From positions 1 through 64,000 of the IMG/VR virus record IMGVR_UViG_3300034092_002634: a stretch of 64,000 nucleotides of DNA, one strand, 5' to 3'. The translations under genes were made by a program, and so were the position numbers. Position 1 is the first letter of the stretch, and each line of letters opens with the position of its first letter. The stretch comes from a virus. Positions 24,401 through 63,911 of the stretch are shown here, in pieces. The notes below the pieces were generated by a model. The model ran no database searches, was not told the DNA's origin, and saw only the letters and a program-made list of their open reading frames with translations.

Positions 24401-27400
24401 CAACAGACAGTACAGGTCGATCCGCAGAAGGTGCTCGATCTTCCAGAATCATACGAGCGATCTCGGTTGAAGCAGCATTTAGCACACTGGTAGTTACAGA
24501 TTCAGATGAATCTGTAGGAGACACGGTTACTCCTAAATCTTGAAGAATTGCCTTATCTTCTTCAGCTAGCTTGTCTATTTCCTCGATTTTTTGAAGTCTT
24601 GCAGCAACATCTTCATTTTTTGCACGTATTCCTTGGTTAACTCTTCGCGCACGCTGTATATCCCACGATGGCTGGTGCATTTCGGGAGGATTGGACTCAT
24701 CCTCAATTGCAAAATCCTCAAGCATCGCCCGCTTAAGTTTTAAACGATCTCTTTTTTTACTTTCTTCTGATTTTTCCTTAGAAGCTGGATCAGACGCAAG
24801 TAAATTGGCGCGCTCTATCAGCGCTTGAGCTGCTTCAGGGTTTTCGGCTGCGTTGTTGAGTATAGCCGTAAGATCTTCCGGATTCCAAGAATCTCTATCT
24901 TTTTCGTCTTCCGGTGCCATAGATATGGCAGCACCTATAATATTTCCAAAGTCTAACCCAACGAATGGTGAATCTGTTGAAATTTCGCCATTTTCCATGT
25001 CCAGACCAAGTCTAGCAAACGCATCTAGAAGCGGCGGCATTCCGCTTTCTTGAGTGCCTTCTTTAATACCGCGATTTGCTCTTTTTTTGAGCGGTTCAAA
25101 ACTCTCTATTTCTGCTTGTCTTTTTTCTTCTTCGGGTTTTAGTAAACTATCTAATTTTTCTATTTCAGAGTCTAATTGTGCTATGTATTCTTCTGAGGGC
25201 ACGCTATCAAAAAGTTCTTCTACAAGTTCGTCAAAAACAGATTCTTGTTCTGCTCGGGACCCAGGTGCCTCATATGAGTATGCAAAGTTTGGCCGCTGGT
25301 ATTCTTGTATAGTTACAGGGCCGGTAACAGATTGCTTCTCAATTTGTCTTTTTTTAGATCTTATTGTAACTTCTTGAAGTGTTTTTAGTTTTTCAGTACG
25401 TTGTATTTCCTGCTCAAGCGCTGCTACTTTTTCCTCCCCTGCAGCTATTTCCTGATCTACTATTGTTTGTGCATCTTCTCCGGTTATTGCTGCTTTTTTC
25501 TTTGCTTCTAGCTCAGTCAACTCAGCAGTCAATTCGATCATTTTTTGCGTTTGTTCGTTGCTAATTGGAGTTTCTTCTTGATCGTTTGTAATTTCCCCTG
25601 ACGCTACCATTGCCTGCAGTGCTACTAAAGCTTCTCGACCAGCAGCCACGTCTCTTTGAGTACTCATTCTACTAGCGTCTATCTGACCAATTGCAGCGGA
25701 AAGCGGCAGTATTTGAACTCCTTGAGTTTCAAAATGAGTTGCCGCAGGTGATACGCTTTGAACTCTACGCATGTAAAACGCATCAGTTGTTGTTGGAGAA
25801 ATTGCAACAGGCACGTCAGCTTTAGGGTCGAACACCACTCCGAGTTCTTCTTGCGCCTCTCTTTCAGCGGCTTGCCATTGTGTTTGACCAGGATCAACAG
25901 TACCCATTACCGGAATGGCTACTCCTCTCCCTTTGTACGATTTTGTAGACTGCCCGACAACAACCATTGGCTCGGATTGACCTGGTACAAAGAAATAAGG
26001 TACTGCTCCTGCAGAAGCTCGATTACTTGCAGAAGTATCGGGTACATTATCTGGTGTAATTGCCGAAACCTCCGGCATTACCTCAGGACCGACAGAAAGA
26101 CCTAAAGTTTCGGCTACTGCAGCGTTTACAACTCTTGATGCATCACTGCCAGGAACTTCTGGAGAAATATCAATTCTACCCGTTTTTGCAAATCTTTCAC
26201 TTATCTGCTCTGGATAATCTGCGGTCAGCGGTAAAGTGCTGCGTCTTGACATGTACGTAAGCTCACCGTGTGATACATCTGGGTGAACATACGTTCGTCC
26301 TGCTACTTGACCTTGGCCCGTTACTCCTCTTTCTGCTGCTTCTCTTGCAAGTTTAGTTGCGGGAGATTCTAATGCTGCTATCTCTCCTTGTACTCTTGCT
26401 ATTTCTTCGTCTATTGTTTCTGGTGTTGAAATTACTGATACTGGAGTTTCTGGTGTTGCAGTTTCCGATGCGGTAGTCAATATTCCCCGTTTTACAAGTT
26501 CTCCCTCAATTGCCTGAATATTAGCTTCTGTAACTACTTTAGCTTTTCTTGCACTTATTGGCCGAGTTTGCTCAGCTGCTTCATACTCTTTTTGAGCTCG
26601 ATGCGCCTCGTCTCTTGCTTTGAAAACTTTTTGCATTTCCGGTGTTTGTTGCAATCTTTGTAACGTGGCTTTATTTTCTTCAGCTTCCTCGTAACTTAGG
26701 GAATTTCTTTTTAAGCGTGCCTGTAATGCTGCATCGTATTCATCGACAATATCTTTATGTGTTAGTTCAATCAGATTTAAAAGCGATTTTTTTCGCTCAA
26801 ATTTATCTTTAGCTCTTTCTATATCTTCTTGACGTTCTTTTTCTAATCTTTCATCTATGTCTGGCTCGTCAGTCATCGCTTGCTTTATCTGACTTAGTTT
26901 ACGTTTTTCTTGTGCTAAAGACGCCTCTAAATGCTCGGTAGATTGAGTTTCGCTAAATGATTCTTTAACAAGTCCGCCAGTCTTTACTACAGGACCTATT
27001 TGCTCGCTTCCCGTAATACCTATAAAACTTCGGTCGTCTTGCAAAGTACCCAACTCCCCCTCGTCAAGAAGCAGTCTTTCACCTAAGCCAACAAAACCTT
27101 CGGTATCGACCTCTGGATCTAGTTTACTAAATTGTCCGCTATGACTGTATGCATCGGACGCTAAGAAAACACGTGCCGGAGTTTTTGATTCAACTGCCAA
27201 AACCCTGCCTTCATGCATAATTCCGCTTTCAGTAGCCCCAATTGCCGCAGTCGAAGGTCCTGTATATCCACCTTTATCTTCGCCCAGCGTTTCTTTAGAA
27301 ATACCTAGGTCAGCTGATTCTATTAAAGCGTCTCCGGCAGTAACAAATTCATGCTTGTAGCCTTCTGAACTTCTTGTTCTGCGGTAAGCCGCGAACGTAG

Positions 27401-30400
27401 CACCAGCAATTTGTCCGGAATCTTTTTTATCTTGCCTACTATGTAAATATTTTATAAGTTCGCCAACAGTTGGGCTTGTTCCGGCTTCTTCAAATGGTTT
27501 TAAAAATTCTATAAATTGGTTTCTTGATTCATCCGTTTTCTGCAAACCTGCGCGGTTTAACATAAGTCTAGCAGTCGAATCTTTGTCATCTGCTGCAAAA
27601 AGTTGTAAAAGGTCGTTTACTTCGGTTTGTGCTGATCTATTATTGACTCTTGCTAGAATTGATTCGGTTGTAAACGGCTCGTCTGCGGGTAAATTAGCAG
27701 CTTCCTGTACCAGCATTTCTGCTAAATGTGTAGAAAACCAAGCTTTACTGACTCCATCAGCCACTGCTGCAGTAAGTGTACCTGTTTCCGCATTTTGACG
27801 GATGGCTAGTCTATCTTGATTTCCTTTTGCTTCTTGTTCTTCCTTAGAAGCTAAAAACGCGACAAAGGCCGGAGATTCTATAAGTTGATCTTCTCCAGTA
27901 GTCGAGTGTACAAAAACTGACTCATCCTCGGCTGTAACATCTTCGGTAATATTTTTTCTTTCTGTAAGATTTATTCTAGGGATTTTTAAAGGTACGGCGT
28001 TTTCGTCTATTGCTATTTCTTCATCTATTGTATCAGCATAAGATAAAACATCAATCGCTTTTTCTGAACCCGCACCTTCTGACCTCATGTCACTAATGTC
28101 TTTTTTAACTGCTGCAATTTCCCCGTCAACGTCTGATTCTTTAATTACAGCTTCAACTGCCTTAGCGGGACCATCTCCAGGTAATTCTGCTTCTAACGCT
28201 GCTCGTTCTTCTCTTAGTTTTTGCAGATTATCTAGCTTAGCTTTATGAGCCATCAAGTTAGTAAGGCGTTGCTCTTGAGTACCAGTTCCGTATCCTTGAG
28301 ATTCGTCAATCTGGTATCGGCCAGTTTGATTAAAAATTTCCTGCATGATGCCTAAATCGTAAATTGCACCACTTCTCGTCGCGGGGTCAATATTGTCCAT
28401 TTGGGCAATTGTGGAAAGATATTCAAATTTTTGAGAAATAGGATCTGGTTCCGATGCTTTGTAAGTAGCAAGTTTTTGCTTAAGGATCTTTAGTTGATTG
28501 TTTTTTTGATCTATAACCGGAAGTATTTTATCTGCTTCGTGAGGTGCTAAAGCTATTCTGCTTCGCATTTCTTCTATTTCTGCAGTTAATTGCTCAAACT
28601 CACGCATTGCTTCTTGAATTTTTATTTCATTTTCTACGTTGCGGCCATACGCACCACCGACAACTTGACCAGACTCTTGGTTTGCAACTTCTGCACCCTT
28701 GCCCAACAAGCTGTAAGACGCTCCTTGATCAGGAACGGCTGCAGCTACATCCGGACCCGTACCAACTAGTCGGTCCTGTCTTCCTAAAACTCGGGCTGCA
28801 AACTGAGGCATACCTTCGCCTGACTGCACGTTGTCAGTTAATAAATTGCTGAACAACGAAAGCGATCGGTTAACCGCTGCAGATACATCGGTTGTGTTTA
28901 TGTTAGCAGGATCAAACATCGCTAAAGCGCGAAATTCATCTTGAAACCCTGCTGGAGCAACCCCGGCTGTTTCGTAATCCGAAATCATTTGAGTGACTTC
29001 ATCAACTCCCATGCCGGCAGCGCCACCTCGTCGCCTAATTGAAGCAACTATTTGATTTTTTATTGCTGGGGCTGCCAAAGTCAACACGCGTTTAATTAAT
29101 TCTTTGGGATCCATCGACGTGTCTAACTCAGCAAGTTGCTTAAGTGATTCAGAATCTATCGCTTGCAGATGCGGAAGTTTAGCTTGCACCTCTTGAAATA
29201 GACTCTGCTCTTCTGCGTCAAGGTCGGTTGAAGTTGCTAACTTAGCATACTCAATTAAGGGAATACCGCCAGAGCCGTAACTACCCATTTCTGCGGATGC
29301 TTGAACAATTGATTGCAAACCTTTCTTTGTTCTGTAGCCACCACCAAGCGATTGATCAAGCTCTTCTCCCTCAAGCATTTTACCGCTGGCGTCTGTCGCA
29401 CGTGCTGCATGATACATACCAGTAATGACATTACCCGCAGAAGCAGACTGTCGAGATAAACCAAAAGCATCACTTATAATTTCGATAAACTCTCGATTTT
29501 GCTGACCTGACGATACTGTGCCGGCTGAGTCTAACTGCTGCGTAATTGGCGTAGTTTGATAGCGGTCTAGTGCCATAGACTGACCGGACGTCATATACTC
29601 TACTAACGACTGTACGGGACTAGTTCCATAAGAGGGCCTTGCTGGAATTGTGAGTCCCGATTGTGCAAGTCCCGCAGAAACTTCCTGAGCCTTGCTCATA
29701 ATCGGCGCTACCGCATCAGGTGTTGCAGGAATGGATCCAATAGACTGTTTAAATAAAACAGTTAGTGCTTGATCTCGCGTTAACGCCGGAGCTGTGTTAC
29801 TGCCCGGAAGTGCTATCTGTCCACGTCTTTGCGCTAACTTTTTTTCCTCTTCTGGATTTTCAGATTCAGCCAGAATCTCATCCAGTAACTGTATCTCTTT
29901 GCCAAGCTTTGCCGACTCAGTTCTGTAGCGATTAGCCATTGCTGGAGCCGCAGTTACCATACTGAGATCCGCCTGATCTCTCTGATAAACAAGTCTTTCG
30001 CGCAAACGTTTTGCGTGAGTTACTGCCAACGTAACTTCCTGTTCTTGTTCCGGAGCAACTGTCTGCTCTACAAAACGACTAGCGGACTGATCTGAAACAG
30101 CCCCTGTCGAAGTATATTGATTTATTAAATCGCCCGCAAACAAAGCAACAAACTTTCGTACTGGATCTCCAGTAACTATCGCCCCTCTAGGTCCCCGAGT
30201 TCCAGCCATTCTACCAAAAGCTGTTGTGTGTTCTGACAAAATTGAACTAGATTGAATCGCCTCCACAACCATTTTTGCAAGAGATTCAGGCAAGTCTACA
30301 GTCTGCCCTGCGATCGAAGCGGGCCTTATGTTTCCTTCTTCTATGTCCTGCATAACGGTTGAAAAGAGCGCGTCAACCGCCTTTTGTACTTCGGCGTCCA

Positions 30401-42604: not shown

Positions 42605-43255
42605 ATGGCAAGAAATCGAAGGTTTGATGAGATTTTGAAGGATTATTCCGACAAGTATGACCTTGCTACGCTTTCATCTCCAAATGACAAAGCTAATTTG
42701 GAGATGCTTATTAACAATCAAATTATTGTTGAAAGCGTTCAGGCCAAACTTCAAGAACTTACGCAGGATGATCCTGTTGACAACATCGATATGATTCAGC
42801 GACTCAGCTCTTCCCTTAAGGACATTATTGAGCGTAATCTTCAATTAGAACGCGCACTAGCTCTGGACCGCAAAACAAGAAACCAGAACTCTTCAGAATC
42901 AGTCGCTGAATACATTGTCCATCTTAAGCAAACAGCACAGGAGTTTTTAGAGAAACGTCTTGTTCGTATGTATTGCCCTAACTGTAAGATCTTGCTGGCT
43001 CGTTTTTCAATTATGCACGATCACAGCGCGTTTGCTCTAAAAGTAAACTGCAATCAGTGTAACAAGTCGGTAAGTGCAGAACGTGAGGAAAAAGACATCT
43101 TTTTTGACATTAAAGATTCGGGCTGGAGAAAGAAACATAAGTACTCAGTTAAAAGTGCTAAATCTTCTGGATCGAGCAGCTCGGACATAGAAGATGACAT
43201 TGTTCTTGAAGACGAGGACCAGGAGGAAAATTTAAATGCTGAAAGCGAAGATTGA
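42605..43255 (+). CDS. Putative terminase small subunit with Zn ribbon
   Basis: Directly upstream of and overlapping the large terminase; helical core, CPNC...CNQC, acidic tail. Confidence 0.5.
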   Translation: MARNRRFDEILKDYSDKYDLATLSSPNDKANLEMLINNQIIVESVQAKLQELTQDDPVDNIDMIQRLSSSLKDIIERNLQLERALALDRKTRNQNSSESVAEYIVHLKQTAQEFLEKRLVRMYCPNCKILLARFSIMHDHSAFALKVNCNQCNKSVSAEREEKDIFFDIKDSGWRKKHKYSVKSAKSSGSSSSDIEDDIVLEDEDQEENLNAESED

Positions 43256-45830
43256 CGACGCAGAGTTGGCGTTAATTGAGGTTTTGGAGGATCCTGTGTG
43301 GTTGAACGAATTCCTTCGCTCTACAAATAACGGCGATATGAACCGTTCAAACTGGCCTTCCGAGGAATTCACTTTTCGCCCTTATCAAAAAGAAATCTTG
43401 ACCGACCAGACACGACACGTAGTAATCACTGGTGGCCGAGCAATCGGAAAATGCCAACCAGCCTCCGCTAAGGTTTTTACAAACGAGGGGTATAAAACAA
43501 TTACGGATCTTCTTAAGAAGCCATCTTTTGTTACCTATGGTTATTCCGTGAACGGTGATTTTACACAACGGCGTGCTTTTGTGCGTAAAGACAGGTGGAA
43601 GAAGTGCTACTCAATTACTACTAAATCAGGACATATGCTTAAGGCAACGGACGTTCATCCTGTAATGACTCCAAAAGGATTTATCTTAATGGCGGATCTT
43701 CAAGTCGGTGATTTAGTTGCGGTTATGAATAAATTGCCAACTGATCACTGCGTCAGTAACACACTGAGTTGGGCGGAACTTCGCATACTTGGTTATTTAG
43801 CAGCAGGTAGTATTTACTTCAAGCCCGCAGGAGGCATTGTCCCTCGTTACAAGAGAATAGATGCCGAGATTAAAGAGATAGCAAACTCACTGTACCTCAA
43901 CTATCGTAAAGACAGCGAAGGTCGCGTTTATATAGAGCGCATGAAGGCTGGCGGAGTCCGTCACTATCTGAATCAGCTCAAGATTGAACTTGGGGCTTAC
44001 GGCAAAGACTATAGACGAGTTTTTAAACTTGACTGGCTAAAGACGCAGCGCACTGAAAACATAAAAACGTTTCTCGAGGCTGCTTACGCTCAGCACGGTG
44101 AGCTGACTCTCGATCGCGTGGCTATTAAACTGCACAACTGGAAATACGTGCAGGACTGGCAAGAACTTCTGCTTTACTTCGGCGTAAAAACGCGATCGTA
44201 CAAGGTTGCTGATCACGCAGACGAGCATCACATATTTGACATAGACGACTCACAATGGATTGTTGAATCGTACGACAAAAACGCCGCTCACGTTTTTTGG
44301 AACCAGTTCAAAGTTCCCGGAGTTTCGGCATCCATAAAGGATCCCGCTTTGGTATCGAGTGACTGGTACTGTTGGGAGCCCATTAGTAGTAAGCAGCGCC
44401 ACGGAATGCAGCTGACATACTCTGTTCATGTTTACCACGACGAAACATACATCAGTGAGAATGTTGTTGTGCACAATTCTGTAATTTTAGAAGATCTAAT
44501 AACTTATCAGGTTCTAAACTCTGCAATCGAGTTTCCAAAAACTCCAGAACAGCTTATGGTTACGCCTAACAGCAACCAATTGAATCCTATTCTAGACAAA
44601 GTTATTTTAAAGTTTACAATTTCCCCGCTGCTTAAGGACTTTTTGAACAATAACGTAAACCGATCTAAAGGTACGTTAGACTTTCAAATGGGTACTCGAA
44701 GACATCGGTTAAATGCGCGTATTGCAGGCAGTCGCGGTGAAAATAACTTGGTTGGTCTTCACATTCCCAAAATTATGGGAGACGAGTTTCAGCTGTTTCC
44801 CATGCCTGCATTTGATCAAATGCAGCCAACGCTAAATACCTGGGAACCGAAAGTGGAAGAACGATACTTCGGTGTTCCTAACGGAATGAGAAATACGGCT
44901 TTGTATGTCTTAGACGTAAAAACACCAAAGTTTAAGAAGTACCGTATTCCCGCACCAAATAACCCTTACTTTACAAAAGAGGACTGGGACGATGCTTTGT
45001 CTAAATACGGTGGTGAATCTGCAGATATCTTTCAGCAGTTAATTCTGGGTAAGCACGGATCTCCCTCGTTCCAGGTTATTTCTCGTGATCAAATGAAAAT
45101 ACTGCCGTTTGATTTCTACACGTATCGATACAGTTCCAACGAAAAAGATAAAGGTAGAACATATCAAGAGGCTTTGCCAGTCGTCAAGATACCCAAGTGC
45201 GACAGCGTTATTTTCGCAATAGACACCGGCTTTAGCGATCCGACAATTATACAAGTAATTGGATTGATTGATAATGTTTGGCATTCGCTGGTTCGTTACA
45301 GAATACAGCGTATTGACTATCCGGAACAAGAAAAAATTATAGACTACCTCGCGCGCGGGTACAACGCAAGCAGAATCGCCATCGACGTAGGAGCTGGCGG
45401 CGGAGGGGCAGGAATTGTACAGAGTCTTAAAACTCGTCCCGAATTCGCCTCAAGTAATTACGCAGCCAGAATAGAAGCAATTCAGTTCAACGAAAAGGTG
45501 GGCGTAGGCTCTATCTCCGACGAACAGGAAATAACTGAGTCGTTTAAAGCTTGGGCAACCACTGAGTTAATTCGTCAAATTACCAACGGGAATCTTGTAT
45601 TTTCCGAGGTAGACGCTGAGGGTATTTCACAGTTAGAGCGCGTAGCTCGACAACGCAGAGCTTCAGGACACATGCACTACTACGTCGTATCCCCACGCGG
45701 ACACGGTGAGAGTAATGATGACCACATCTACGCAAGCTATCTTTGTTTTATTGGCGCACTTCGTCTTCCGGTGGTTGCTCCTAAAAGCAACACATTGGCA
45801 CGATCAGCAGCCTATCACACAGTGAGGTGA
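43236..45830 (+). CDS. terL: Terminase large subunit, intein-containing
   Basis: FRPYQ (adenine-binding motif), Walker A GGRAIGK|S split by an intein, Walker B IMGDE, nuclease FAIDTGFSDPT...NDDH. Confidence 0.9.
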   Translation: MLKAKIDDAELALIEVLEDPVWLNEFLRSTNNGDMNRSNWPSEEFTFRPYQKEILTDQTRHVVITGGRAIGKCQPASAKVFTNEGYKTITDLLKKPSFVTYGYSVNGDFTQRRAFVRKDRWKKCYSITTKSGHMLKATDVHPVMTPKGFILMADLQVGDLVAVMNKLPTDHCVSNTLSWAELRILGYLAAGSIYFKPAGGIVPRYKRIDAEIKEIANSLYLNYRKDSEGRVYIERMKAGGVRHYLNQLKIELGAYGKDYRRVFKLDWLKTQRTENIKTFLEAAYAQHGELTLDRVAIKLHNWKYVQDWQELLLYFGVKTRSYKVADHADEHHIFDIDDSQWIVESYDKNAAHVFWNQFKVPGVSASIKDPALVSSDWYCWEPISSKQRHGMQLTYSVHVYHDETYISENVVVHNSVILEDLITYQVLNSAIEFPKTPEQLMVTPNSNQLNPILDKVILKFTISPLLKDFLNNNVNRSKGTLDFQMGTRRHRLNARIAGSRGENNLVGLHIPKIMGDEFQLFPMPAFDQMQPTLNTWEPKVEERYFGVPNGMRNTALYVLDVKTPKFKKYRIPAPNNPYFTKEDWDDALSKYGGESADIFQQLILGKHGSPSFQVISRDQMKILPFDFYTYRYSSNEKDKGRTYQEALPVVKIPKCDSVIFAIDTGFSDPTIIQVIGLIDNVWHSLVRYRIQRIDYPEQEKIIDYLARGYNASRIAIDVGAGGGGAGIVQSLKTRPEFASSNYAARIEAIQFNEKVGVGSISDEQEITESFKAWATTELIRQITNGNLVFSEVDAEGISQLERVARQRRASGHMHYYVVSPRGHGESNDDHIYASYLCFIGALRLPVVAPKSNTLARSAAYHTVR
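43452..44477 (+). mobile_element. Intein (342 aa) with degenerate LAGLIDADG endonuclease
   Basis: Starts CQPASAKV; block B KATDVHPV; ends ENVVVHN followed by +1 Ser; inserted in the P-loop. Confidence 0.92.
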
Positions 45831-55531: not shown

Positions 55532-55620
55532 CGAGATCGAGGCTTGCATTTTGTTTTGAGTTGGTGTAGACTACGTATGTGCTACTAAGCATGTGTTGTT
55601 TCCCAGACGACACCACCTGG

Positions 55621-55677
55621 GACCCCCTCACGTTACGGCAGAACACGTGAGGGGTTCTTTTTTTTTTATTTTTTTTC
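55621..55677 (+). terminator. Strong intrinsic terminator
   Basis: Stem cccctcacgt...acgtgagggg followed by two long T-runs. Confidence 0.8.
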
Positions 55678-56042: not shown

Positions 56043-56108
56043 ACAGCGAAACAATCTACTCAGTAATGAGTAGGTTGTATGCAGTTTATAACTGCACTGA
56101 CGAGCTGT
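56043..56108 (+). ncRNA. Type II hammerhead ribozyme
   Basis: Stem II strand acagc, GAAA, stem III caatctactc/gagtaggttg (10 bp), UA cleavage after 56079 (GUA triplet), stem I tgcagtt/aactgca, core CUGACGA, stem II strand gctgt; the full conserved core is present. Confidence 0.93.
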
Positions 56109-56150
56109 TCGTTAGTAATCAGTATTGTCTCTTTGAAAGGACAAACAACC

Positions 56151-56633
56151 ATGTTCGCAGTCATCATCACCGTCTTCGCAGTCATCGTCGCCATCCGCAT
56201 CATCAGCAGCATCACCGTCGAGATCACCACCCACCAGTACGATGTCGAGTGTGAGTGTGTCAAGTGTCAGCAGACCAGCAAGGAGATTCGCAACATGAGT
56301 AAGTTGAACGTCAAGTCCATCGAGGAATACGCAGCCATCTACGCTCAATGGGTATCAGTCGACACCTCAGTCGAAGAGTACTCGGCAGCTGCAGTTGACG
56401 TCATCATCACCACAACCGGCACTTGGAAGATGACTTACGTCGTCAACAAGTCGGTTAAGTTCACTGGCCGCACGTCATACACCGGCAAGACTTCGGGTTG
56501 GTTGTTCGAAAACGTCAACACCGGTGCAAGCGACATGTACCTCCAGATCAGTGGTAAGTCCTCCGCATGGGAAGCTCGCAACTGGTTCGGTAACGGTAAC
56601 TTCGCTGTCAACACCAAGGTCGCTGTCAAGTAA
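56151..56633 (+). CDS. Membrane-anchored protein with HxYDVECECxxC motif
   Basis: RBS; N-terminal TM helix; HQYDVECECVKC. Confidence 0.75.
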   Translation: MFAVIITVFAVIVAIRIISSITVEITTHQYDVECECVKCQQTSKEIRNMSKLNVKSIEEYAAIYAQWVSVDTSVEEYSAAAVDVIITTTGTWKMTYVVNKSVKFTGRTSYTGKTSGWLFENVNTGASDMYLQISGKSSAWEARNWFGNGNFAVNTKVAVK

Positions 56634-56642
56634 CTAACCAAC

Positions 56643-56672
56643 TAGCAACGCTCACCTGCTACAGGATGTGAG
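56643..56672 (+). ncRNA. Pseudoknot class A, copy 1
   Basis: S1 tagca/tgcta, S2 ctcac/gtgag, linkers acg, c, caggat. Confidence 0.75.
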
Positions 56673-56715
56673 AATTATCAACATTGCCCAATAAGGGCTA
56701 GAGAGAGTGACTACA

Positions 56716-57030
56716 ATGGAGAACATGCTCAACATCACCGCAATCGCCGCCAACGACTGGAACGTCTGGACCTGTGCTCACTGTGAGTCGTGCAACTTCG
56801 GTGACACGAAGGTCTGCATCGTGTGTGACATGGGCCGCTGGACCAGCTGTGACATCGAGTGCGAGCACAACCGGCCAGCACCTGCTTCGGTAGCGGTATA
56901 CGTCAACTTGGATGAGGTTGTCCAGGTGCCGTTGCCATACACCAACATCCATCAGGTGCCTGCTAATTACAAGGAACTGATGGACATGGAGCGCGAAGGT
57001 GCTCTGCAGTTGGAAATGCGCTTGTCGTAG
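56716..57030 (+). CDS. Cys-rich Zn-finger protein
   Basis: WTCAHCESCN...VCIVC (RanBP2-like spacing). Confidence 0.7.
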   Translation: MENMLNITAIAANDWNVWTCAHCESCNFGDTKVCIVCDMGRWTSCDIECEHNRPAPASVAVYVNLDEVVQVPLPYTNIHQVPANYKELMDMEREGALQLEMRLS

Positions 57031-57040
57031 TCTTGTTCAC

Positions 57041-57072
57041 CTGCAACGCTCACCTGCAGTAATGGATGTGAG
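57041..57072 (+). ncRNA. Pseudoknot class A, copy 2
   Basis: S1 ctgca/tgcag, S2 ctcac/gtgag, linkers acg, c, taatggat. Confidence 0.75.
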
Positions 57073-57130
57073 ATGTCCGTATGTCCGTATGTGTGTTTAT
57101 TATTATGTTCTTTGAAAGGACAAAACTACC

Positions 57131-57496
57131 ATGAAGTCAGTCATCAACGCAGTCATCGGCATGTTCGTGTTGGTCGTCAGCCACTTGGTCATCTACTTCG
57201 TTCGCAACCTGAAGATGGGCTTCATCTTCGGCGTCGTCATGCTCACCTTGCTTGGCTTGGGCATCAGCGGCGAATTGCCTTCTATCGACATTGTCACCGC
57301 TAAGTGGGTAGGCATTCTGACCGTTGGGTACGCAGCTGTCGTTGCTGTATTCGGTGTGTTCGTAACCGCTTACGAGATTCGTAAGTACATGGCCAAGGAA
57401 GCAAAGGGCCAAGACACCTGGATTGAGCGGATTAACCTTCTTAAGGTTGTCTACAATGTTCCAGGATACAGCTTCCGCAACAACATCACCAAGTAG
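57131..57496 (+). CDS. Three-TM membrane protein
   Basis: RBS; three hydrophobic helices. Confidence 0.75.
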   Translation: MKSVINAVIGMFVLVVSHLVIYFVRNLKMGFIFGVVMLTLLGLGISGELPSIDIVTAKWVGILTVGYAAVVAVFGVFVTAYEIRKYMAKEAKGQDTWIERINLLKVVYNVPGYSFRNNITK

Positions 57497-57501
57497 TCAA
57501 C

Positions 57502-57535
57502 ACCGGAGTGGGCGGCAACCGGTCAACTTGCCCAC
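57502..57535 (+). ncRNA. Pseudoknot class B, copy 1
   Basis: S1 accgg/ccggt, S2 gtgggc/gcccac. Confidence 0.8.
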
Positions 57536-57538
57536 CAT

Positions 57539-57576
57539 TGGAGAAGTGATGCATCTCCAGCATAGATCAGCATCCT
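57539..57576 (+). ncRNA. Tandem pseudoknot class D, copy 1
   Basis: S1 tggaga/tctcca; loop ag-t-gatgc pairs with gcatc-ct. Confidence 0.55.
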
Positions 57577-57607
57577 TGCTGCGTTTGCAGCTAGAGGGGT
57601 ATTACCA

Positions 57608-57790
57608 ATGGGTAAGTACTATCGGTCCTCGGTGGTTGTTCGTTGGTTGGTGCACAGTCTGAGCGATTGTGCTATGAGACTGATGCCAATTGGTTTGTCT
57701 GATGTCGAGGACGGTAGTCTTCGGTGGAAAGCAGCCAACTGGCTGATGCGCAAGACTAGCGACTGGGCTGTCGCGCTTAAGAAGGTCTAG
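57608..57790 (+). CDS. Hypothetical protein
   Basis: 60 aa; RBS; fits the cassette pattern. Confidence 0.6.
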   Translation: MGKYYRSSVVVRWLVHSLSDCAMRLMPIGLSDVEDGSLRWKAANWLMRKTSDWAVALKKV

Positions 57791-57795
57791 TCCAC

Positions 57796-57834
57796 CGTGG
57801 AGTAAGCGGATAACCACGTTAAAAACTTGCTTAC
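57796..57834 (+). ncRNA. Pseudoknot class B, copy 2
   Basis: S1 cgtgg/ccacg, S2 gtaagc/gcttac. Confidence 0.8.
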
Positions 57835-57837
57835 CAT

Positions 57838-57875
57838 TGGAGAAGTAATGCAACTCCAGCATAGCACTGCATTCT
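57838..57875 (+). ncRNA. Tandem pseudoknot class D, copy 2
   Basis: S1 tggag/ctcca; loop ag-t-aatgca pairs with tgcatt-ct. Confidence 0.55.
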
Positions 57876-57932
57876 CGGATGACAATCATCTGAGCTATAG
57901 CTGCCATTGCAGCTAGAAAGGTACGCCTTACC

Positions 57933-58415
57933 ATGGGTAAGAAGTACAACACGTCCGCAGTCACCGTTCGTCCGATTGCCACCGGGGAGCTTGCCTTCCT
58001 GGTCGAGGCATGGGAGGGCATCAAGCCTTCCCGCAAAGCCGCGGTGACGGTGCGGATTGCTCGGGAGACCGAGCGTCCGGCCAACTGGCGGCCAAAGACC
58101 GACAAGATCGGTCGCCGTCCTCGGATTGAGGCGGTGGTGGCTGAGCGAGAAGTGGAGGAAGGGCCGCACGAGTGCGACTTCTCGATCAGCCGGTGGGAGG
58201 ATGTCATCTACCACCATAGCGGGTGGATTGACGTAACTATCGCACGGTGTGAGTGCGGTAGTTACAACATCACTCCGGAAGACCCGGAGATCCACATCTC
58301 CGAAGACGACCACGCTCACCAAGTGTGGATTATTAAAAAGTATAGGTGTAATCCTGTGGCGTACGTTTCCGAGTCGTACGAGGGCAGTTCGCCCTTCAAG
58401 AAGCTCGACCGGTAG
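57933..58415 (+). CDS. Hypothetical protein
   Basis: 160 aa; RBS; HEC...CECG possible metal site. Confidence 0.7.
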   Translation: MGKKYNTSAVTVRPIATGELAFLVEAWEGIKPSRKAAVTVRIARETERPANWRPKTDKIGRRPRIEAVVAEREVEEGPHECDFSISRWEDVIYHHSGWIDVTIARCECGSYNITPEDPEIHISEDDHAHQVWIIKKYRCNPVAYVSESYEGSSPFKKLDR

Positions 58416-58419
58416 TCAC

Positions 58420-58459
58420 ACGTGGAGTCAACGGATAACCACGTTAAAAACTTGTTGAC
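58420..58459 (+). ncRNA. Pseudoknot class B, copy 3
   Basis: S1 acgtgg/ccacgt, S2 gtcaac/gttgac. Confidence 0.8.
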
Positions 58460-58512
58460 CATTGTATATACATAATTCTGTGTATATACTAGCTCTCGAA
58501 AGGAGCACGGCT

Positions 58513-58737
58513 ATGGAATTCCTTGAGGTATTAGTTCGCGGTAAGACGGTCAAAGATGTCAGCGTCGAGCAGATCGCGCGCAACATCTACGAAGTCACGG
58601 TGGGCCATGGCGGCGGGGAAGAGGGCCCCGACGGTGAATGGCGTGGCTACGTAATCGGTCGTAGCCAAATTATCATCGCCAGTAGCATGTACGATGCGTG
58701 CTACAAGGCGCATCACTTAGCCAAGATAATTGGCTAA
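58513..58737 (+). CDS. Hypothetical protein
   Basis: AAGGAG RBS before MEFLEV. Confidence 0.7.
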   Translation: MEFLEVLVRGKTVKDVSVEQIARNIYEVTVGHGGGEEGPDGEWRGYVIGRSQIIIASSMYDACYKAHHLAKIIG

Positions 58738-58743
58738 GTGTGT

Positions 58744-58777
58744 TGCAGAGTGGGCGGTAACTGCATAACTTGCCCAC
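58744..58777 (+). ncRNA. Pseudoknot class B, copy 4
   Basis: S1 tgcag/ctgca, S2 gtgggc/gcccac. Confidence 0.8.
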
Positions 58778-58831
58778 CATTGCATACAGTATAATTCGGT
58801 ATTGTATGCTAGCTCTCGAAAGGAGCATATC

Positions 58832-59113
58832 ATGCATAAGTATGATGTAGAGTGTGAGTGTGTAGTGTGTGTGGCGTGGACCGACCGGATCGGGCATAAG
58901 TTGGAAACTGTGGCAACATACGTTGACAACAGTGGACACGATTACGACATTGAGTGCGAATGCACTGAGTGTCAGAAGATCACGGTGGCCGAGCGCGAAA
59001 TCCAGATGTATGTCCTGGGGGAACCAATCTCTGTCCCGGTTACGATCAATCCAGAGGTTCAGGAATTCGCTGACAAGAAGTTGTCGGATAGTATTCGGTT
59101 CGATCAGCACTAA
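58832..59113 (+). CDS. Protein with two HxYD[VI]ECECxxC motifs
   Basis: MHKYDVECECVVC...HDYDIECECTEC. Confidence 0.75.
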   Translation: MHKYDVECECVVCVAWTDRIGHKLETVATYVDNSGHDYDIECECTECQKITVAEREIQMYVLGEPISVPVTINPEVQEFADKKLSDSIRFDQH

Positions 59114-59122
59114 TCAGCACTA

Positions 59123-59153
59123 GAGCTCTCGGCAAAGCTCGTTAAACACCGAG
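59123..59153 (+). ncRNA. Pseudoknot class C, copy 1
   Basis: S1 gagc/gctc, S2 ctcgg/ccgag, L3 gttaaaca. Confidence 0.75.
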
Positions 59154-59162
59154 TAGAAGGGA

Positions 59163-59753
59163 ATGTCTATGTATGACATTCTGGTTGTGACGGTGTTGGC
59201 ATTCGTGATGATGGCCGTGTTATTGAAAGGTGGTCGGTAATGAGTCCTGCAGAACAACTATACGTCGAGAAGTTGTGTCGCCAGTACTATCAGGCGCTCT
59301 ATGGCGTAGATTACGTCGTAGAGTTCGGGCATATCTTGCTGTTTCCGCATAAGCATGCGGAGGCTGTGGTCAAGCTCGAGAAACTCATGGAGAATGTCGG
59401 TTACCAGGTAGTTCGCCTGGTAGAAATTCGGAAAGGGTAAACTAGTGCACAAGATCACCCTGTTAGACGTTCGGCATAGTGCTGCCGAAAAGCTGGCCAA
59501 AGAGAAACTGCGGGTAGAAGTACCCGCAGAATACAACGGGGATTGGTTCCCCGCTGTCATGTACGTACCTGCGTATCCCCGTCAGGAGGATCACAGCGTG
59601 GATGCTTACACGTTCAAATGTGTGAGCGTCAACGCTAGCCTGAAACGTCTTAGACGGCTCTACACGGCCCTTGGTGGACGCGCAATGCCTCCGTGGTCCG
59701 GTATATTGGTTGACGGCGTCGAGGTCAACGGGAACGTCAAGGACGGCGAGTAG
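59163..59753 (+). CDS. Three coupled small genes (59163/59169-59240 membrane peptide; 59240-59440; 59445-59753)
   Basis: TAATG coupling and a 4-nt gap; no motif recognised. Confidence 0.6.
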
Positions 59754-59758
59754 TCCAC

Positions 59759-59792
59759 CTGGAGTGAGGGGTAACCAGTATAACTTCCTCAT
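59759..59792 (+). ncRNA. Pseudoknot class B, copy 5
   Basis: S1 ctgg/ccag, S2 gtgagg/cctcat. Confidence 0.75.
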
Positions 59793-59823
59793 GTACTAAT
59801 TTAGCTCTTGAAAGGAGCGTGTC

Positions 59824-60075
59824 ATGCACAAGTATGACGTTGAGTGCGAGTGTGTCGAGTGTCAGAAATCCTGGAGGGTGGAGCACATCTGGGAGACCGT
59901 CAACTCCCAGGCGGAAGCAGACTGGACTTTCTCGGGTGACACCGAGGACGAGGTCGTCGCCGCTGCGTACAAGCGCAAAGAGACTCTTCGCCCCACTGAA
60001 GAAGAGTGGATGGCTGTGGAGGACAAGTTCTTTCTCTACAAAAAGGGGAAGTTCTTGGGAGAGTTTTCCCTTTAG
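59824..60075 (+). CDS. Protein with HxYDVECECxxC motif
   Basis: MHKYDVECECVECQK; AAGGAG RBS. Confidence 0.75.
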   Translation: MHKYDVECECVECQKSWRVEHIWETVNSQAEADWTFSGDTEDEVVAAAYKRKETLRPTEEEWMAVEDKFFLYKKGKFLGEFSL

Positions 60076-60081
60076 TAGTCC

Positions 60082-60115
60082 ACGTGGTAGTCGGATAACC
60101 ACGTTAAACACCGAC
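60082..60115 (+). ncRNA. Pseudoknot class C, copy 2
   Basis: S1 acgtgg/ccacgt, S2 gtcgg/ccgac, L3 taaaca. Confidence 0.8.
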
Positions 60116-60149
60116 ATCATTTTATGTGCAAAAGCACAAGGAGAATCCA

Positions 60150-60626
60150 ATGCCTAATTGGTGCAGTAACGTTGTTCAACTCAGCAAAGACGGGTACGAC
60201 TTTACGAGCATGGAAAAACGCATCCCTACCGAGGGACTCTATGCGCAATTCCTTCCCGCACCCGAGGGACTTGACGACCACCAACTGACGGATTGGTGCT
60301 ACGAGAATTGGGGCGTTAAGTGGGACACCCAGAACGCAGATGCCGGCGTCGATGGCGACCGCATTCAACTGTGTTTTGATAGCCCATGGAGCGCACCACG
60401 GCAGTGGCTCGCCTATATGGTGAGCATCGGGTTCGATGTCCGAGGTGCATTCTGGGAGCCAGGCATGGCCATGGGCGGTGTCTACACTACCTTGCACGAT
60501 GGAGCACTAGTTGCTCCAGCATTGGAGTGGACGCAGGACAACCTCGTCGAACGGGGTAGCGAAATGTACGAATATCTCATCAGTTACGGACTGATCTCAG
60601 AAGATGATGAAATGATCAACGACTAG
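60150..60626 (+). CDS. DUF1281/YubB ferredoxin-like fold protein
   Basis: MPNWCSN...DWCYENWGVKWD...FDSPWSAP...FWEPGM. Confidence 0.8.
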   Translation: MPNWCSNVVQLSKDGYDFTSMEKRIPTEGLYAQFLPAPEGLDDHQLTDWCYENWGVKWDTQNADAGVDGDRIQLCFDSPWSAPRQWLAYMVSIGFDVRGAFWEPGMAMGGVYTTLHDGALVAPALEWTQDNLVERGSEMYEYLISYGLISEDDEMIND

Positions 60627-60631
60627 CTCGC

Positions 60632-60665
60632 ACGAGGTAACCGGCAAACCTCGTTAAACACCGGT
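60632..60665 (+). ncRNA. Pseudoknot class C, copy 3
   Basis: S1 acgagg/cctcgt, S2 accgg/ccggt, L3 taaaca. Confidence 0.8.
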
Positions 60666-60695
60666 ATCTTTTTATGCTCACGAAAGGAGCACGGT

Positions 60696-60965
60696 ATGTT
60701 GTATTGCATGATGGCGGTGTCTCGATGGCTTACTGGTGACCCGGACTTCGGGTACGATGGGGAGATGATCCCCAAGGTCACCGCGGTGATCTACATCCGT
60801 GAACAGCCCTTTGAGGACTGGGAGCGGGAGGAAGGCAGGAATATCTGGAAAATCAAGCTCGGTGAGTCTACTGTTGTGTCAATGCATAGGTGGACAACTG
60901 ATCTCTCTCCAGTGGAGATCAGTACCAAGCATGACTGCGAAGTCATTGACTGGTCCAAGCGGTAA
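60696..60965 (+). CDS. Hypothetical protein
   Basis: AAGGAG RBS; 89 aa. Confidence 0.65.
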   Translation: MLYCMMAVSRWLTGDPDFGYDGEMIPKVTAVIYIREQPFEDWEREEGRNIWKIKLGESTVVSMHRWTTDLSPVEISTKHDCEVIDWSKR

Positions 60966-60974
60966 GTGGAGATC

Positions 60975-61008
60975 TCGGAGTGAGGGGATAACCGATGTAA
61001 CTTCCTCA
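60975..61008 (+). ncRNA. Pseudoknot class B, copy 6
   Basis: S1 tcgg/ccga, S2 tgagg/cctca. Confidence 0.75.
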
Positions 61009-61041
61009 ATAGTTATATTAGCTCTTGAAAGGAGCAACGCT

Positions 61042-61670
61042 ATGCAAGTACTGCAAGCACGGGGAATTATCCTGGAAAATCTGGAAGCGCTTCGCGAGTT
61101 CAAGCCCGAGGACTTGCGGCTGGTTGCGTTATACAACGCAGCAGCAGGGCAGTCCTGGGCCGAGTTCAACCTTATCCGCACAACGTGTGCGGACTGGGAC
61201 GAGCTCACCTACAACAACTTTGAGGAGGAAGACCTCAAGAATTTGTGGGACGAACTCTCTGAGCATTTCAGCAAAATCTGGGAAGGAACCAAGTAATGCG
61301 AGTACGTGGCAAGCAGCCGCATGTCTATCGTGAGTCAGAAACGGCTACGATAGCGCGGTACACCAACTTGCTCCCTCCTGTGTACGAGGCAAGTGCACAG
61401 GAGTGGAAGGTGTTTGGCCGTCAGGATACCATTGTCCGTGTTGGTACGCGGGCGACTATGCTGACGTATCTCAAGGGTAGGCGCGATCAGTATACTCGTA
61501 TGCACGGATACGAGGATTTGACTGACCCCTGCCTCAGGCTGAGGTGGGATACTAGTCTGCGGTGCTTTCACGTGACAGAGCCGCAGTTGGACCTACCCGT
61601 GTTCTCAGGTACTAAGTACATGTGTACGTGGTATCTGGTTGGCCGGTCGGACGAGTTCCAAGGCCTGTAG
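61042..61670 (+). CDS. Two coupled hypothetical genes (61042-61296; 61296-61670)
   Basis: AAGGAG RBS; TAATG coupling. Confidence 0.65.
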
Positions 61671-61673
61671 TGT

Positions 61674-61704
61674 GTTGACAACGCTCACCTGTGTCGGATG
61701 TGAG
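61674..61704 (+). ncRNA. Pseudoknot class A, copy 3
   Basis: S1 aca/tgt (or gaca/tgtc), S2 ctcac/gtgag, L3 ggat. Confidence 0.7.
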
Positions 61705-61746
61705 AAAGTAATTATAGCCCTGAGGGGCAAGAAGGAGAGTGTGACT

Positions 61747-62025
61747 ATGGGTAAGGTTATCACCGCAGCGGTCTTCATCAGCATGTTCAACAGCTCATTC
61801 CGGGACAGGCTCGAGTGGATGAGTGAGGAAGTTCGCGACCTCACGGTGGACGCGCTCACCCGGGAAGGCTACGACGAGGACGATTTGCGTCGGATGTCGG
61901 ATGCCTTTGCCAAGCTGGAGGAAAAGTCCAGCGACTTGATCGAGACAGACTACGCCAACGATCTGCTGAACGTGGACGAAGAGAGTCTCGATGAGGGTTA
62001 CTACTCGGATGGTGAAGACGAGTAG
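61747..62025 (+). CDS. Highly acidic small protein
   Basis: AAGGAG RBS; D/E-rich. Confidence 0.7.
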   Translation: MGKVITAAVFISMFNSSFRDRLEWMSEEVRDLTVDALTREGYDEDDLRRMSDAFAKLEEKSSDLIETDYANDLLNVDEESLDEGYYSDGEDE

Positions 62026-62034
62026 TAGGTAGCG

Positions 62035-62067
62035 GACTGGCAACTCTCGCCTGCGTCGGATGCGAGG
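62035..62067 (+). ncRNA. Pseudoknot class A, copy 4
   Basis: S1 gac-(tg)-gca/tgc-gtc, S2 ctcgc/gcgag, L3 ggat. Confidence 0.75.
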
Positions 62068-62109
62068 AAGTAATGTATAGCCCTGAGGGGCAAGAAGGAG
62101 AGTGTGACT

Positions 62110-62571
62110 ATGGGGACTCAGCATTGCGTCTTGATCCAGGACCGTTTCGACAACGAGGCCAAGTTCAACTTGGTCATCACCCACGACGTACCCTTCCACC
62201 CGGAAGCGGTCTTGTGGATTGCTCAGCTGTACACGGCAAAGCGTTGGGGGTCACAGCCCGACGTGTACCGCACTGCCGAGCTCGATGTCAGCGTCGACTG
62301 GAACGACATCGTGTACGTTCCGGCGCTAAATGTCCTGGACTTCGAGTCCTCGGACTACTGGCCAACACAGAAGCAGCTGAGGTTGGCTCGGATGGCGTTG
62401 GATTCGTACCGTATGTTTTATGACGAGTTGGCAAGGCAGGAGAAGATTATCTCCGGCTATGTCCGTCAGGAGATGCACAAGCAGTACGGTGAGGACACCG
62501 TCGCTATGCGTCTTCCCACCTTCCACAGCCGTGCTTCGGCATTGGACATCCTAGTTCATCTGGCACGGTAA
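62110..62571 (+). CDS. Hypothetical protein
   Basis: AAGGAG RBS; about 153 aa. Confidence 0.7.
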   Translation: MGTQHCVLIQDRFDNEAKFNLVITHDVPFHPEAVLWIAQLYTAKRWGSQPDVYRTAELDVSVDWNDIVYVPALNVLDFESSDYWPTQKQLRLARMALDSYRMFYDELARQEKIISGYVRQEMHKQYGEDTVAMRLPTFHSRASALDILVHLAR

Positions 62572-62577
62572 GTCCAC

Positions 62578-62611
62578 ACGAGGTAGCCGGCGAACCTCGT
62601 TAAACACCGGT
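62578..62611 (+). ncRNA. Pseudoknot class C, copy 4
   Basis: S1 acgagg/cctcgt, S2 gccgg/ccggt (G-U), L3 taaaca. Confidence 0.8.
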
Positions 62612-62648
62612 ATAGTATTATAAGTGCAAGAGCACAAAGGAGAGCAAG

Positions 62649-62975
62649 ATGCGTTACTCAATCAAGTTCGTGGCGAGTGCGAAGAAGTCCGTTCCCTTCG
62701 GCCTGGGTATGAGCAAGAAGTTCCACGACGCTGTGTGGAAGGGTGGGTGTAAGCGCCAGTGGCACGACATTGGTATCAAGGCCACGGAGTACTGCCTGCG
62801 GACACGTTCGTGCATGATCGACGTCGAGGCCTCGGACGCTGCTGAGTTGTCGTTTAAGCAGGAGGTGTGCCAGAGCCTGGTCGACTACATCTGGCAGGCA
62901 AGCAACAAGCCCTTTACAAGCGTAGAGGTGTTCGAGACGTGGAGTCACAAGGTTATCTACAAGGCTGATCTCTAG
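62649..62975 (+). CDS. Hypothetical protein
   Basis: AAGGAG RBS; 108 aa. Confidence 0.7.
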   Translation: MRYSIKFVASAKKSVPFGLGMSKKFHDAVWKGGCKRQWHDIGIKATEYCLRTRSCMIDVEASDAAELSFKQEVCQSLVDYIWQASNKPFTSVEVFETWSHKVIYKADL

Positions 62976-62979
62976 GAAT

Positions 62980-63011
62980 GTCTGGCAACTCCCACCTGCG
63001 ACGGATGTGGG
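62980..63011 (+). ncRNA. Pseudoknot class A, copy 5
   Basis: S1 gtc-(tg)-gca/tgc-gac, S2 cccac/gtggg, L3 ggat. Confidence 0.75.
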
Positions 63012-63050: not shown

Positions 63051-63911
63051 ATGTCTGATGTCAAAGTCCCTGCAGCAGAGCGTATTGGGTCCGCGATGGT
63101 TGAGAAGCTGATCGAGTCACTCGAAGCGGGAGTGGCAAACGGTCAATGGAAGCAGCCGTGGACAACGTCAAAGCAGATCAATGCGGTCACCGGGGCTAGC
63201 TACTCCGGTGCCAATGCGATCAACTTGATGTTGATTGGCGCGGAATGCCCTTACTGGGCTACCTTCAATCAGTGGTCGACAGCCGGTTACCGTATTCCAC
63301 AGGGTACGGAATCCAGCGGTTTTGTCCACACCCCTCCGAGACGGAACAAGAAGACGGAGAGCGGCGAAGAGATCACCATATTCGTCCCATCAAAGACGTT
63401 TGTGGTGTTCAACGGTTCACAAGTCGTTGACGCCGATGGCAACCCGTTCACGTGGGAATCTTCGCCACCTGTTCCGGTTCTTCCAGAGATCGAGGCCTTC
63501 TTCGCCAAGCACAATCCAACGATTGTGCATGACGATCCCAGTAGTGCATATTATCATCCGTCGAAAGACTTGATCAATATGCCGCCGATCAACTCGTTTG
63601 TTGACAATGTTTCATACTATGGAACGTTAGCGCACGAGATGATTCACTGGACTGCACACAAGGACCGGCTGGATCGCGATCTGTCTCAGTATGGCCGTGA
63701 TCGTAAAGTACGCGCATTCGAAGAACTCATAGCTGAGTTCGGCGCGGCCATTATCGGTAGTGAACTTGGTCTAACTACTGAGGTGAGAGATGACCATCTG
63801 CAGTATCTAGCTTCTTGGCTATCCTCCCTTAAGGAGGATAAGACGGTACTGCGGCGGGCGGTTACCGAAGCAGGTAAGGCTTCAGCCTACGTCAGCAGAG
63901 ATGCTGAGTAG
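63051..63911 (+). CDS. ardC: ArdC-family antirestriction protein (ssDNA-binding domain + zincin metallopeptidase)
   Basis: WKQPW, N..TG..YSGAN, WATFNQW, VFNGSQV, AYYHPSKDLINMP, LAHEMIHWT, EELIAE, YLASWL. Confidence 0.92.
   Translation: MSDVKVPAAERIGSAMVEKLIESLEAGVANGQWKQPWTTSKQINAVTGASYSGANAINLMLIGAECPYWATFNQWSTAGYRIPQGTESSGFVHTPPRRNKKTESGEEITIFVPSKTFVVFNGSQVVDADGNPFTWESSPPVPVLPEIEAFFAKHNPTIVHDDPSSAYYHPSKDLINMPPINSFVDNVSYYGTLAHEMIHWTAHKDRLDRDLSQYGRDRKVRAFEELIAEFGAAIIGSELGLTTEVRDDHLQYLASWLSSLKEDKTVLRRAVTEAGKASAYVSRDAE

Follow-up and report, generated by a model that had tools for sequence, protein, structure and literature searches.

The structured RNAs known from the gaps between phage genes have all been ribozymes, hammerheads since 2011 and other kinds at a later date, and their purpose is still unsettled. 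Clustered type II hammerheads (RF02276) occur in phage and prophage operons, where they lie on the coding strand behind stop codons and between small phage genes, and the proposed task of those that flank single phage genes is to divide long transcripts into mRNAs of gene length (Perreault et al., 2011; PMC3088659); according to a 2019 review, what such hammerheads are for is still open (PMC6765202). Here we describe an RNA element, class A, found in the same niche in an uncultured phage (IMG/VR record IMGVR_UViG_3300034092_002634). The DNA analysed, hereafter the window, is the first 64 kb of this 82,652-bp virus record, and it holds five copies of the element within an array of small genes. 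Class A is an uncatalogued RNA family in the niche of ribozyme punctuation, as neither Rfam nor the literature searched holds a description of it.

Several known systems share features with class A. Compared with the type II hammerheads, it lacks the CUGANGA/GAAA core and the three-way junction, and is about half the size. The preQ1-I aptamer (RF00522) is likewise a compact H-type pseudoknot, of about 34 nucleotides (nt), with a first stem (S1) of 5 bp, short first and second loops (L1, L2) and a conserved junction that includes a lone C; in class A, however, the third loop (L3) is not A-rich, the second stem (S2) is longer, no expression platform overlaps the ribosome-binding site (RBS), and several copies occur per operon. 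The pistol ribozyme (RF02679) is also a small phage-associated RNA around a hairpin-loop pseudoknot, but class A has no counterpart of its P2, P3 or G-U cleavage junction. Viral recoding pseudoknots, such as those of −1 frameshifting or of readthrough of the murine leukemia virus (MuLV) type, share the H-type fold and a position 5-10 nt past the A-site codon, whereas class A comes with neither a slippery site nor an open downstream frame. CsrA/RsmA sites present GGA in an exposed loop, as does copy 1 of class A (CAGGAUG), but class A also has AGA variants, S1 covariation that such a site leaves unexplained, and a slot that it shares with modules devoid of GGA. In T4-type phages, finally, Arbiol and colleagues reportedly described in 2010 the PeSL cassettes, in which an early promoter and a stem-loop recur between small early genes. 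These too are repeated modules at the boundaries of small, shuffled early genes, their repeats serving as recombination points; unlike this combination of promoter and simple hairpin, class A is not promoter-like and is a pseudoknot.

Searches with the 4227 models of Rfam 15 gave no match at E<=10 on any class A copy, including in a 1.1-kb scan with permissive filters that covered two of them; class A is therefore not a member of the hammerhead, pistol, twister, twister-sister, hatchet or hepatitis delta virus (HDV)-like families, nor of the small pseudoknot riboswitches. Neither the three hammerhead models RF02276, RF00008 and RF00163 nor those for preQ1-I, SAM-II/V, fluoride and guanidine-III riboswitches matched it, whereas the neighbouring hammerheads do match Rfam hammerhead models.

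Fold and conserved sequence of class A

The element has the architecture of a classical H-type pseudoknot of 30-32 nt, in the order S1-S2-S1'-S2': S1 of 5 bp, L1 of 3 nt, S2 of 5 bp, L2 consisting of a single C, and L3 of 4-9 nt ending in RGAU. A prior reading made from the letters of the window (the sequence-only reading) had placed five plus-strand copies there. Direct inspection confirms them, and a covariance model (R1) run on the whole 82,652-bp genome returns exactly these five, with E-values from 3e-11 to 4e-8; all of them begin 4-10 nt past a stop codon. They are given below with the pseudoknot body taken to extend from the start of S1 through the end of S2' and with scores from the covariance model.

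56637..56672, plus strand: class A copy 1 (47.6 bits, E 1.8e-9), body 56643-56672; flank 56637-42, S1 TAGCA 56643-47, L1 ACG, S2 CTCAC 56651-55, L2 C 56656, S1' TGCTA 56657-61, L3 CAGGAT, S2' GTGAG 56668-72; begins 9 nt past a TAA ending at 56633; next start at 56707/56725
57035..57072, plus strand: class A copy 2 (55 bits, E 3.3e-11), body 57041-57072; flank GTTCAC, S1 CTGCA 57041-45, S2 CTCAC 57049-53, L2 C, S1' TGCAG 57055-59, L3 TAATGGAT, S2' GTGAG 57068-72; begins 10 nt past a TAG ending at 57030; next start at 57131
61670..61704, plus strand: class A copy 3 (45.3 bits), body 61676-61704; weak S1, pairing only as ACA/TGT or GACA/TGTC, S2 CTCAC 61684-88, S2' GTGAG 61700-04; after a TAG ending at 61670; next gene start at 61741/61747
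62032..62066, plus strand: class A copy 4, TGGCAACT subtype (45.7 bits), body 62038-62066; S1 only GCA/TGC, S2 CTCGC 62046-50, S2' GCGAG 62062-66; after tandem stops TAGTAG ending at 62028
62977..63011, plus strand: class A copy 5, TGGCAACT subtype (41.8 bits), body 62983-63011; S1 GCA/TGC, S2 CCCAC 62991-95, S2' GTGGG 63007-11; after a TAG ending at 62975, upstream of an ArdC-like gene (63051-63911)

Relatives were found in other uncultured phages. Pattern scans of IMG/VR yielded five further phage contigs with one to six class A copies each, and the scan of one metagenome 21 additional contigs; looser patterns applied to viral contigs gave mostly single chance matches, and the strict pattern had no match in 185,579 bacterial and archaeal species genomes. 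A covariance model in which S2 only was encoded was then run on 325 kb of related loci and returned 96 copies, 75 of them distinct, from related uncultured phage contigs. All 96 lie on the coding strand of their arrays.

The fold rests on covariation. In an alignment of 20 copies from 6 phage genomes, 95.5% of the cells are paired and six of the ten pairs show changes on both sides; none of 500 shuffles matched the observed pairing, and controls in which the partner strand was slid were paired in 21-47%. Among the 75 distinct copies S2 is paired throughout (100%), with four covarying pairs and seven versions that each meet their exact complement (CUCAC, CCCAC, CUCGC, CCCGC, CCUAC, CUUAC, UCCAC). 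S1 is paired in 91.7% of its cells in the same copies, with three covarying pairs, and since it was part of neither the search pattern nor the model, its pairing constitutes an independent test. Slid controls of this larger set are paired in 20-47%. The three outer S1 pairs switch among U-A, C-G, A-U and G-C (column counts, for instance, of 30 UA, 24 CG and 5 AU, or of 54 GC, 14 UA and 6 AU), giving versions such as CUGCA/UGCAG, CCGCA/UGCGG, CCUCA/UGAGG, CCACA/UGUGG, UAGCA/UGCUA and UUGCA/UGCGG; U-G pairs are present, the last version holding two such wobbles. Given the pairing of both stems in relatives and the much lower values of the slid controls, we take the H-type pseudoknot to be real, supported as well as comparative data permit, with compensatory changes in each of its two interleaved helices. 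The nested folding energy of the five copies is no better than that of shuffled sequences (z from -0.55 to +0.87), so that the case for the fold is comparative and not thermodynamic.

The sequence-only reading had proposed these same two interleaved stems, and the independent copies bear it out: the S2 series CTCAC/GTGAG, CTCGC/GCGAG and CCCAC/GTGGG is present in the window, S1 pairs as TAGCA/TGCTA and CTGCA/TGCAG, and homologues retain the S1 complementarity on which the proposal hinged. It had also lengthened S1 across a 2-nt bulge, with a GAC..GTC to GTC..GAC swap. The swap can be read in this genome, but relatives carry GTC..GTC or TGT..GTC and do not keep the extension, which we have rejected. 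In the UGGCAACU subtype, comprising copies 4 and 5 and their relatives, GCA/UGC is the only part of S1 that is conserved. A switch in which the flank UUCAC would pair with S2' GUGAG was likewise discarded, being paired in 75% against 76% in shuffles and showing zero covariation.

Of the unpaired residues read as invariant (AC, a single C and GGAU), the lone C of L2 is indeed so across relatives, while L1 turned out to be A-[C/U/G]-[G/U] and the end of L3 to be RGAU, with AGAU in 8 of the 75 distinct copies. The two S1 pairs adjoining L2 (C-G and A-U) are near-invariant, a C for U at L153:121 (related loci are cited as locus:position) being the exception among the 75. A 5' flank with the consensus (UA)GUUCAC, seen in 32/54 class A spacers against 30/230 other spacers, also belongs to the motif. 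On the 3' side the knot is usually followed by an A/U-rich linker (AGUAUU, AAGUAAU), often by a conserved hairpin, and then by an RBS hairpin. In relatives the conserved hairpin reads GCGG-A-CUACA-CAG-UGUAG-AU-CCGC and follows class A and some class C modules (for example L144:7712-7735, L145:12116-12139, L148:812-833); none of the five window copies has it, and GCCC-NNNN-GGGC stands in its place in three of them (copies 1, 3 and 4). Two likenesses, that of GUUCAC-CUGCA...UGCAG to a type I-F repeat of clustered regularly interspaced short palindromic repeats (CRISPR) and that of CUCACCUG / GGAUGUGAG to an anti-Shine-Dalgarno/Shine-Dalgarno pair, are undermined because S1 and S2 vary freely provided that pairing holds.

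Post-stop position and exchange with other modules

Class A is tied to the end of the preceding gene. Of 91 copies with a callable upstream open reading frame (ORF; at least 35 codons), 80 begin 5-10 nt past its stop, whereas the next start lies at a variable distance, for the most part 29-90 nt and with a median of 56 nt. The stop ahead of the 91 copies is TAG in 69, TAA in 22 and TGA in none, but as TAG dominates in all array spacers this bias is not specific to class A. Across 284 distinct array spacers we counted 202 TAG, 69 TAA and 13 TGA stops, usually with T as the next base (TAGT), a preference that is unusual for a bacterial virus.

The same post-stop position is taken by other structured modules, of which the following belong to the array of this phage.

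56044..56113, plus strand: type II hammerhead opening the array, in a post-stop spacer (Rfam RF02276, 18.8 bits)
66839-66910 of the genome (L150:3839-3910), beyond the window: type II hammerhead closing the array (Rfam RF02276, 28.9 bits)
57497-57540, 57791-57840, 58416-58462, 58738-58780, 59754-59795, 60966-61005: class B post-stop pseudoknots
59114-59150, 60076-60115, 60627-60670, 62572-62615: class C post-stop pseudoknots

Both bracketing hammerheads align over the full length of RF02276 with an intact core, although they score below its gathering threshold of 37, and in relatives hammerheads also occur inside the arrays, in the same post-stop spacers. The Rfam 'freshwater-2 RNA' model matches weakly at 56056-56153 (25 bits; gathering score 49.9), in overlap with the first hammerhead and with the RBS that comes next, and that family may be related to this arrangement of hammerhead plus leader. 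The ten class B and C pseudoknots have covarying stems and conserved loops of their own (GAG...UAAC...AACUU; ...UUAAACA...). Class B-type copies number dozens per genome in relatives, often in spacers of 55-63 nt.

To compare the modules ahead of orthologous genes, the proteins of all loci were clustered. In clusters 13 and 174 one phage has class A ahead of the downstream gene where another has a hammerhead, and in clusters 25 and 30, the latter being the ArdC-like gene of the window, class A in one phage corresponds to a class B-type pseudoknot in another; in cluster 95 class A is replaced by yet another hairpin. Class A has no sequence kinship to classes B and C and yet holds the same place, as had been proposed from the window; its exchange for class B or for a hammerhead before orthologous genes takes this equivalence further than the window could show. 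Recombination has left its traces as well. Hybrid copies in relatives (L147:643 and L170:11042) combine a copy 3 flank with the body of copy 4 or copy 5, and the gene at 61741-62025 is missing in the relative G002, which together point to the repeats as crossover points for the gain and loss of gene cassettes.

The small-gene array and its phage

The array comprises some 35 small plus-strand genes between about 55.7 and 67.3 kb of the genome, with a G+C content of 0.51-0.54 as against 0.40-0.47 across the first 52 kb. Each gene has a strong Shine-Dalgarno sequence, often within or beside a short hairpin. Just upstream, at 55541-55670, a promoter-like TTGCAT-17-TAGACT is followed within 80 nt by a strong intrinsic terminator (GGGGTT and a T-run), a pair that could represent a small RNA or an attenuator. 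A cysteine motif, YDVECECxxCQ, is common to otherwise unrelated small array proteins (56240-56275, 58838-58870, 58940-58975, 59830-59865) and has no match in Pfam.

In all, 32 proteins were run against Pfam and PHROGs, namely the large proteins, with the giant one split into two parts that overlap, and ten of the small array genes. Family A DNA polymerase, DnaB, RecA, ThyX, a Cas4-like nuclease, ribonucleotide reductase, an intein-bearing terminase and lysins were identified. None of the 32 is an RNA polymerase, and the array is therefore presumably transcribed by the host enzyme; the ten array proteins gave no RNA-binding domain in Pfam and no family that would name a partner protein. The large terminase subunit (43236-45830) is seemingly interrupted by the intein (Pfam Intein_splicing and Terminase_6C), and NUDIX is the only Pfam match of a 6,477-aa ORF on the minus strand (12483-31916). 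Megablast of the region from 56 to 64 kb returned no isolated phage; by portal protein the nearest isolated phages are the Bacillus phages Slash and Basilisk, at only 23-24% identity.

Candidate roles of class A

We suggest that class A works in cis at the cistron boundaries of a polycistronic early mRNA, as a module for the processing, end protection or insulation of each cistron, and we give this reading about an even chance. It is drawn from the anchoring to the stop codon, the exchange with a self-cleaving ribozyme and the A/U-rich linker followed by hairpins. We infer that the knot acts as RNA, forming on a long early mRNA that host RNA polymerase would make from the small plus-strand genes, as one of several interchangeable 'punctuation' modules flush against stops, the others being type II hammerheads and classes B and C. 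Most likely it would mark the 3' boundary of the cistron by folding as near the stop as the terminating ribosome permits, an argument from closest distance that builds on the established geometry of the footprint of the terminating ribosome. Were a nuclease to cut in the A/U-rich linker beside the knot, and not inside it, the upstream message would end in a compact fold and the downstream message would begin with its own hairpins, and each small gene could become a unit with a stability and a translation of its own. By cutting itself, a hammerhead in this slot would yield equal products, with the upstream end in a hairpin and a hairpin at the downstream start.

Some observations sit uneasily with a boundary module of this kind. 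Judged by nearest-neighbour energy, two 5-bp stems have no great stability and would make a weak simple nuclease block. Conservation extends to unpaired nucleotides in the flank (GUUCAC) and at the helix junction (L1 A, L2 C and L3 GAU), which suggests a specific tertiary pocket or a specific partner, beyond a passive block. The expected linkage to the upstream rather than the downstream gene is only a trend, class A being kept with the upstream gene in 9/12 clusters and with the downstream gene in 11/19, after two gene-call artefacts were dropped and with small numbers in both.

The conserved junction nucleotides keep two further readings in consideration. One is that class A is a self-cleaving ribozyme in its own right, new and very small, doing what hammerheads do in equivalent spacers, which we regard as unlikely but far from negligible. 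It would account for a slot held in common with hammerheads and exchanged with them before orthologous genes, and for invariant unpaired nucleotides that cluster at the helix junction as in catalytic cores; Weinberg and colleagues are said to have found twister-sister, pistol and hatchet in 2015 by searching near known ribozymes. Motifs near ribozymes have often failed cleavage tests. At about 33-39 nt with two 5-bp helices, class A is to our knowledge smaller than any natural self-cleaving class, and this, like the lack of a match to any Rfam 15 ribozyme model, argues against catalysis. A wider version, which likewise has a small but real chance of being correct, would make class A a new class of RNA that cleaves itself or guides a nuclease, at <40 nt the smallest in nature. 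The clade would then use a mixed 'punctuation code', with hammerheads and several pseudoknot ribozymes of unrelated kinds dividing one long early transcript into messages of a single gene each. The other reading sees in the conserved loops the recognition surface of an operator, where an RNA-binding protein, whether an early phage protein or a host regulator such as CsrA, would shut off or time the translation of early genes. The conserved loop and flank sequence, the GGA exposed in the loop and a second GGA in the RBS hairpin 40-70 nt downstream are consistent with this, and the sequence-only reading had offered a CsrA/RsmA site as its alternative. Such a site would call for an invariant GGA in a hairpin loop, whereas AGA replaces it in the eight copies noted above; it would also leave the selection on S1 unexplained. 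Moreover, hammerheads and unrelated pseudoknots without GGA substitute for class A, the knot is tied to the stop codon and not to the next RBS, and the ten array proteins offer no RNA-binding domain. The CsrA/RsmA alternative is thus not supported, and an operator of any kind seems distinctly unlikely.

It is very improbable that class A acts primarily as DNA, whether as a promoter, as a site bound by protein (such as a stoperator) or as a place where recombination shuffles gene cassettes. The flank TTCACC and some L3 variants (TAGGAT) do resemble −35 and −10 boxes at an 18-nt spacing, and the hybrid copies testify to past recombination; the latter, however, is an expected side effect of any repeat, and compensatory changes in two interleaved helices would be useless for the recognition of double-stranded DNA. 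Moreover, most L3 variants lack a TAnnnT hexamer and the spacing varies by 5 nt. Sigma-70 promoter scans flagged no class A copy in the window or in the relative G001, and TTCACC-18-TAGGAT, which fits some variants only, was rejected as a promoter. A clean TTGACG-18-TATAAT lies in a separate spacer of G001, which suggests that the host uses ordinary promoters and that class A is not one. The intrinsic terminator scan of the window also flagged no copy, and S2' is followed by A/G-rich or mixed sequence with no U-tract.

A ligand-sensing aptamer of the preQ1-I type, whose lone junction C would recognise a purine-like ligand and so control expression of the next gene, is a highly improbable reading. 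Size and loop order agree with those of the preQ1-I aptamer, and the invariant lone C of L2 sits at the helix junction, but no riboswitch model matches, L3 is not A-rich and the RBS, 30-90 nt away, is overlapped by no expression platform. The many copies per operon are unlike riboswitches, which would also not be expected to exchange with hammerheads. Least credible of all is an action on the ribosome at the stop, as a stimulator of readthrough or frameshifting or a modulator of termination: the distance of 5-10 nt from stop to knot is the established spacing of viral pseudoknots for −1 programmed ribosomal frameshifting and MuLV readthrough, yet in 40% of copies another in-frame stop comes up before the knot has ended, extension past the stop has a median of 17 codons and gives a consistent fusion in none of the 0, −1 and +1 frames, and tandem stops (TAGTAG) precede copy 4. 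As the downstream frames are not open, recoding is unlikely.

The value of class A lies in its very clean covariation, its small size and its direct exchange with hammerheads, which make the purpose of these modules testable, and in either outcome it would provide a natural insulator part of about 35 nt that is of interest to operon engineers. The alternative is a clean one: the knot cuts as the hammerheads do, or the slot has no need of a cut. In the first case class A is a ribozyme class that is new and very small. In the second, the need that it shares with the hammerheads would be a compact fold flush with the stop, and the stabilisation or insulation of messages would emerge as the real function of ribozyme-punctuated operons.

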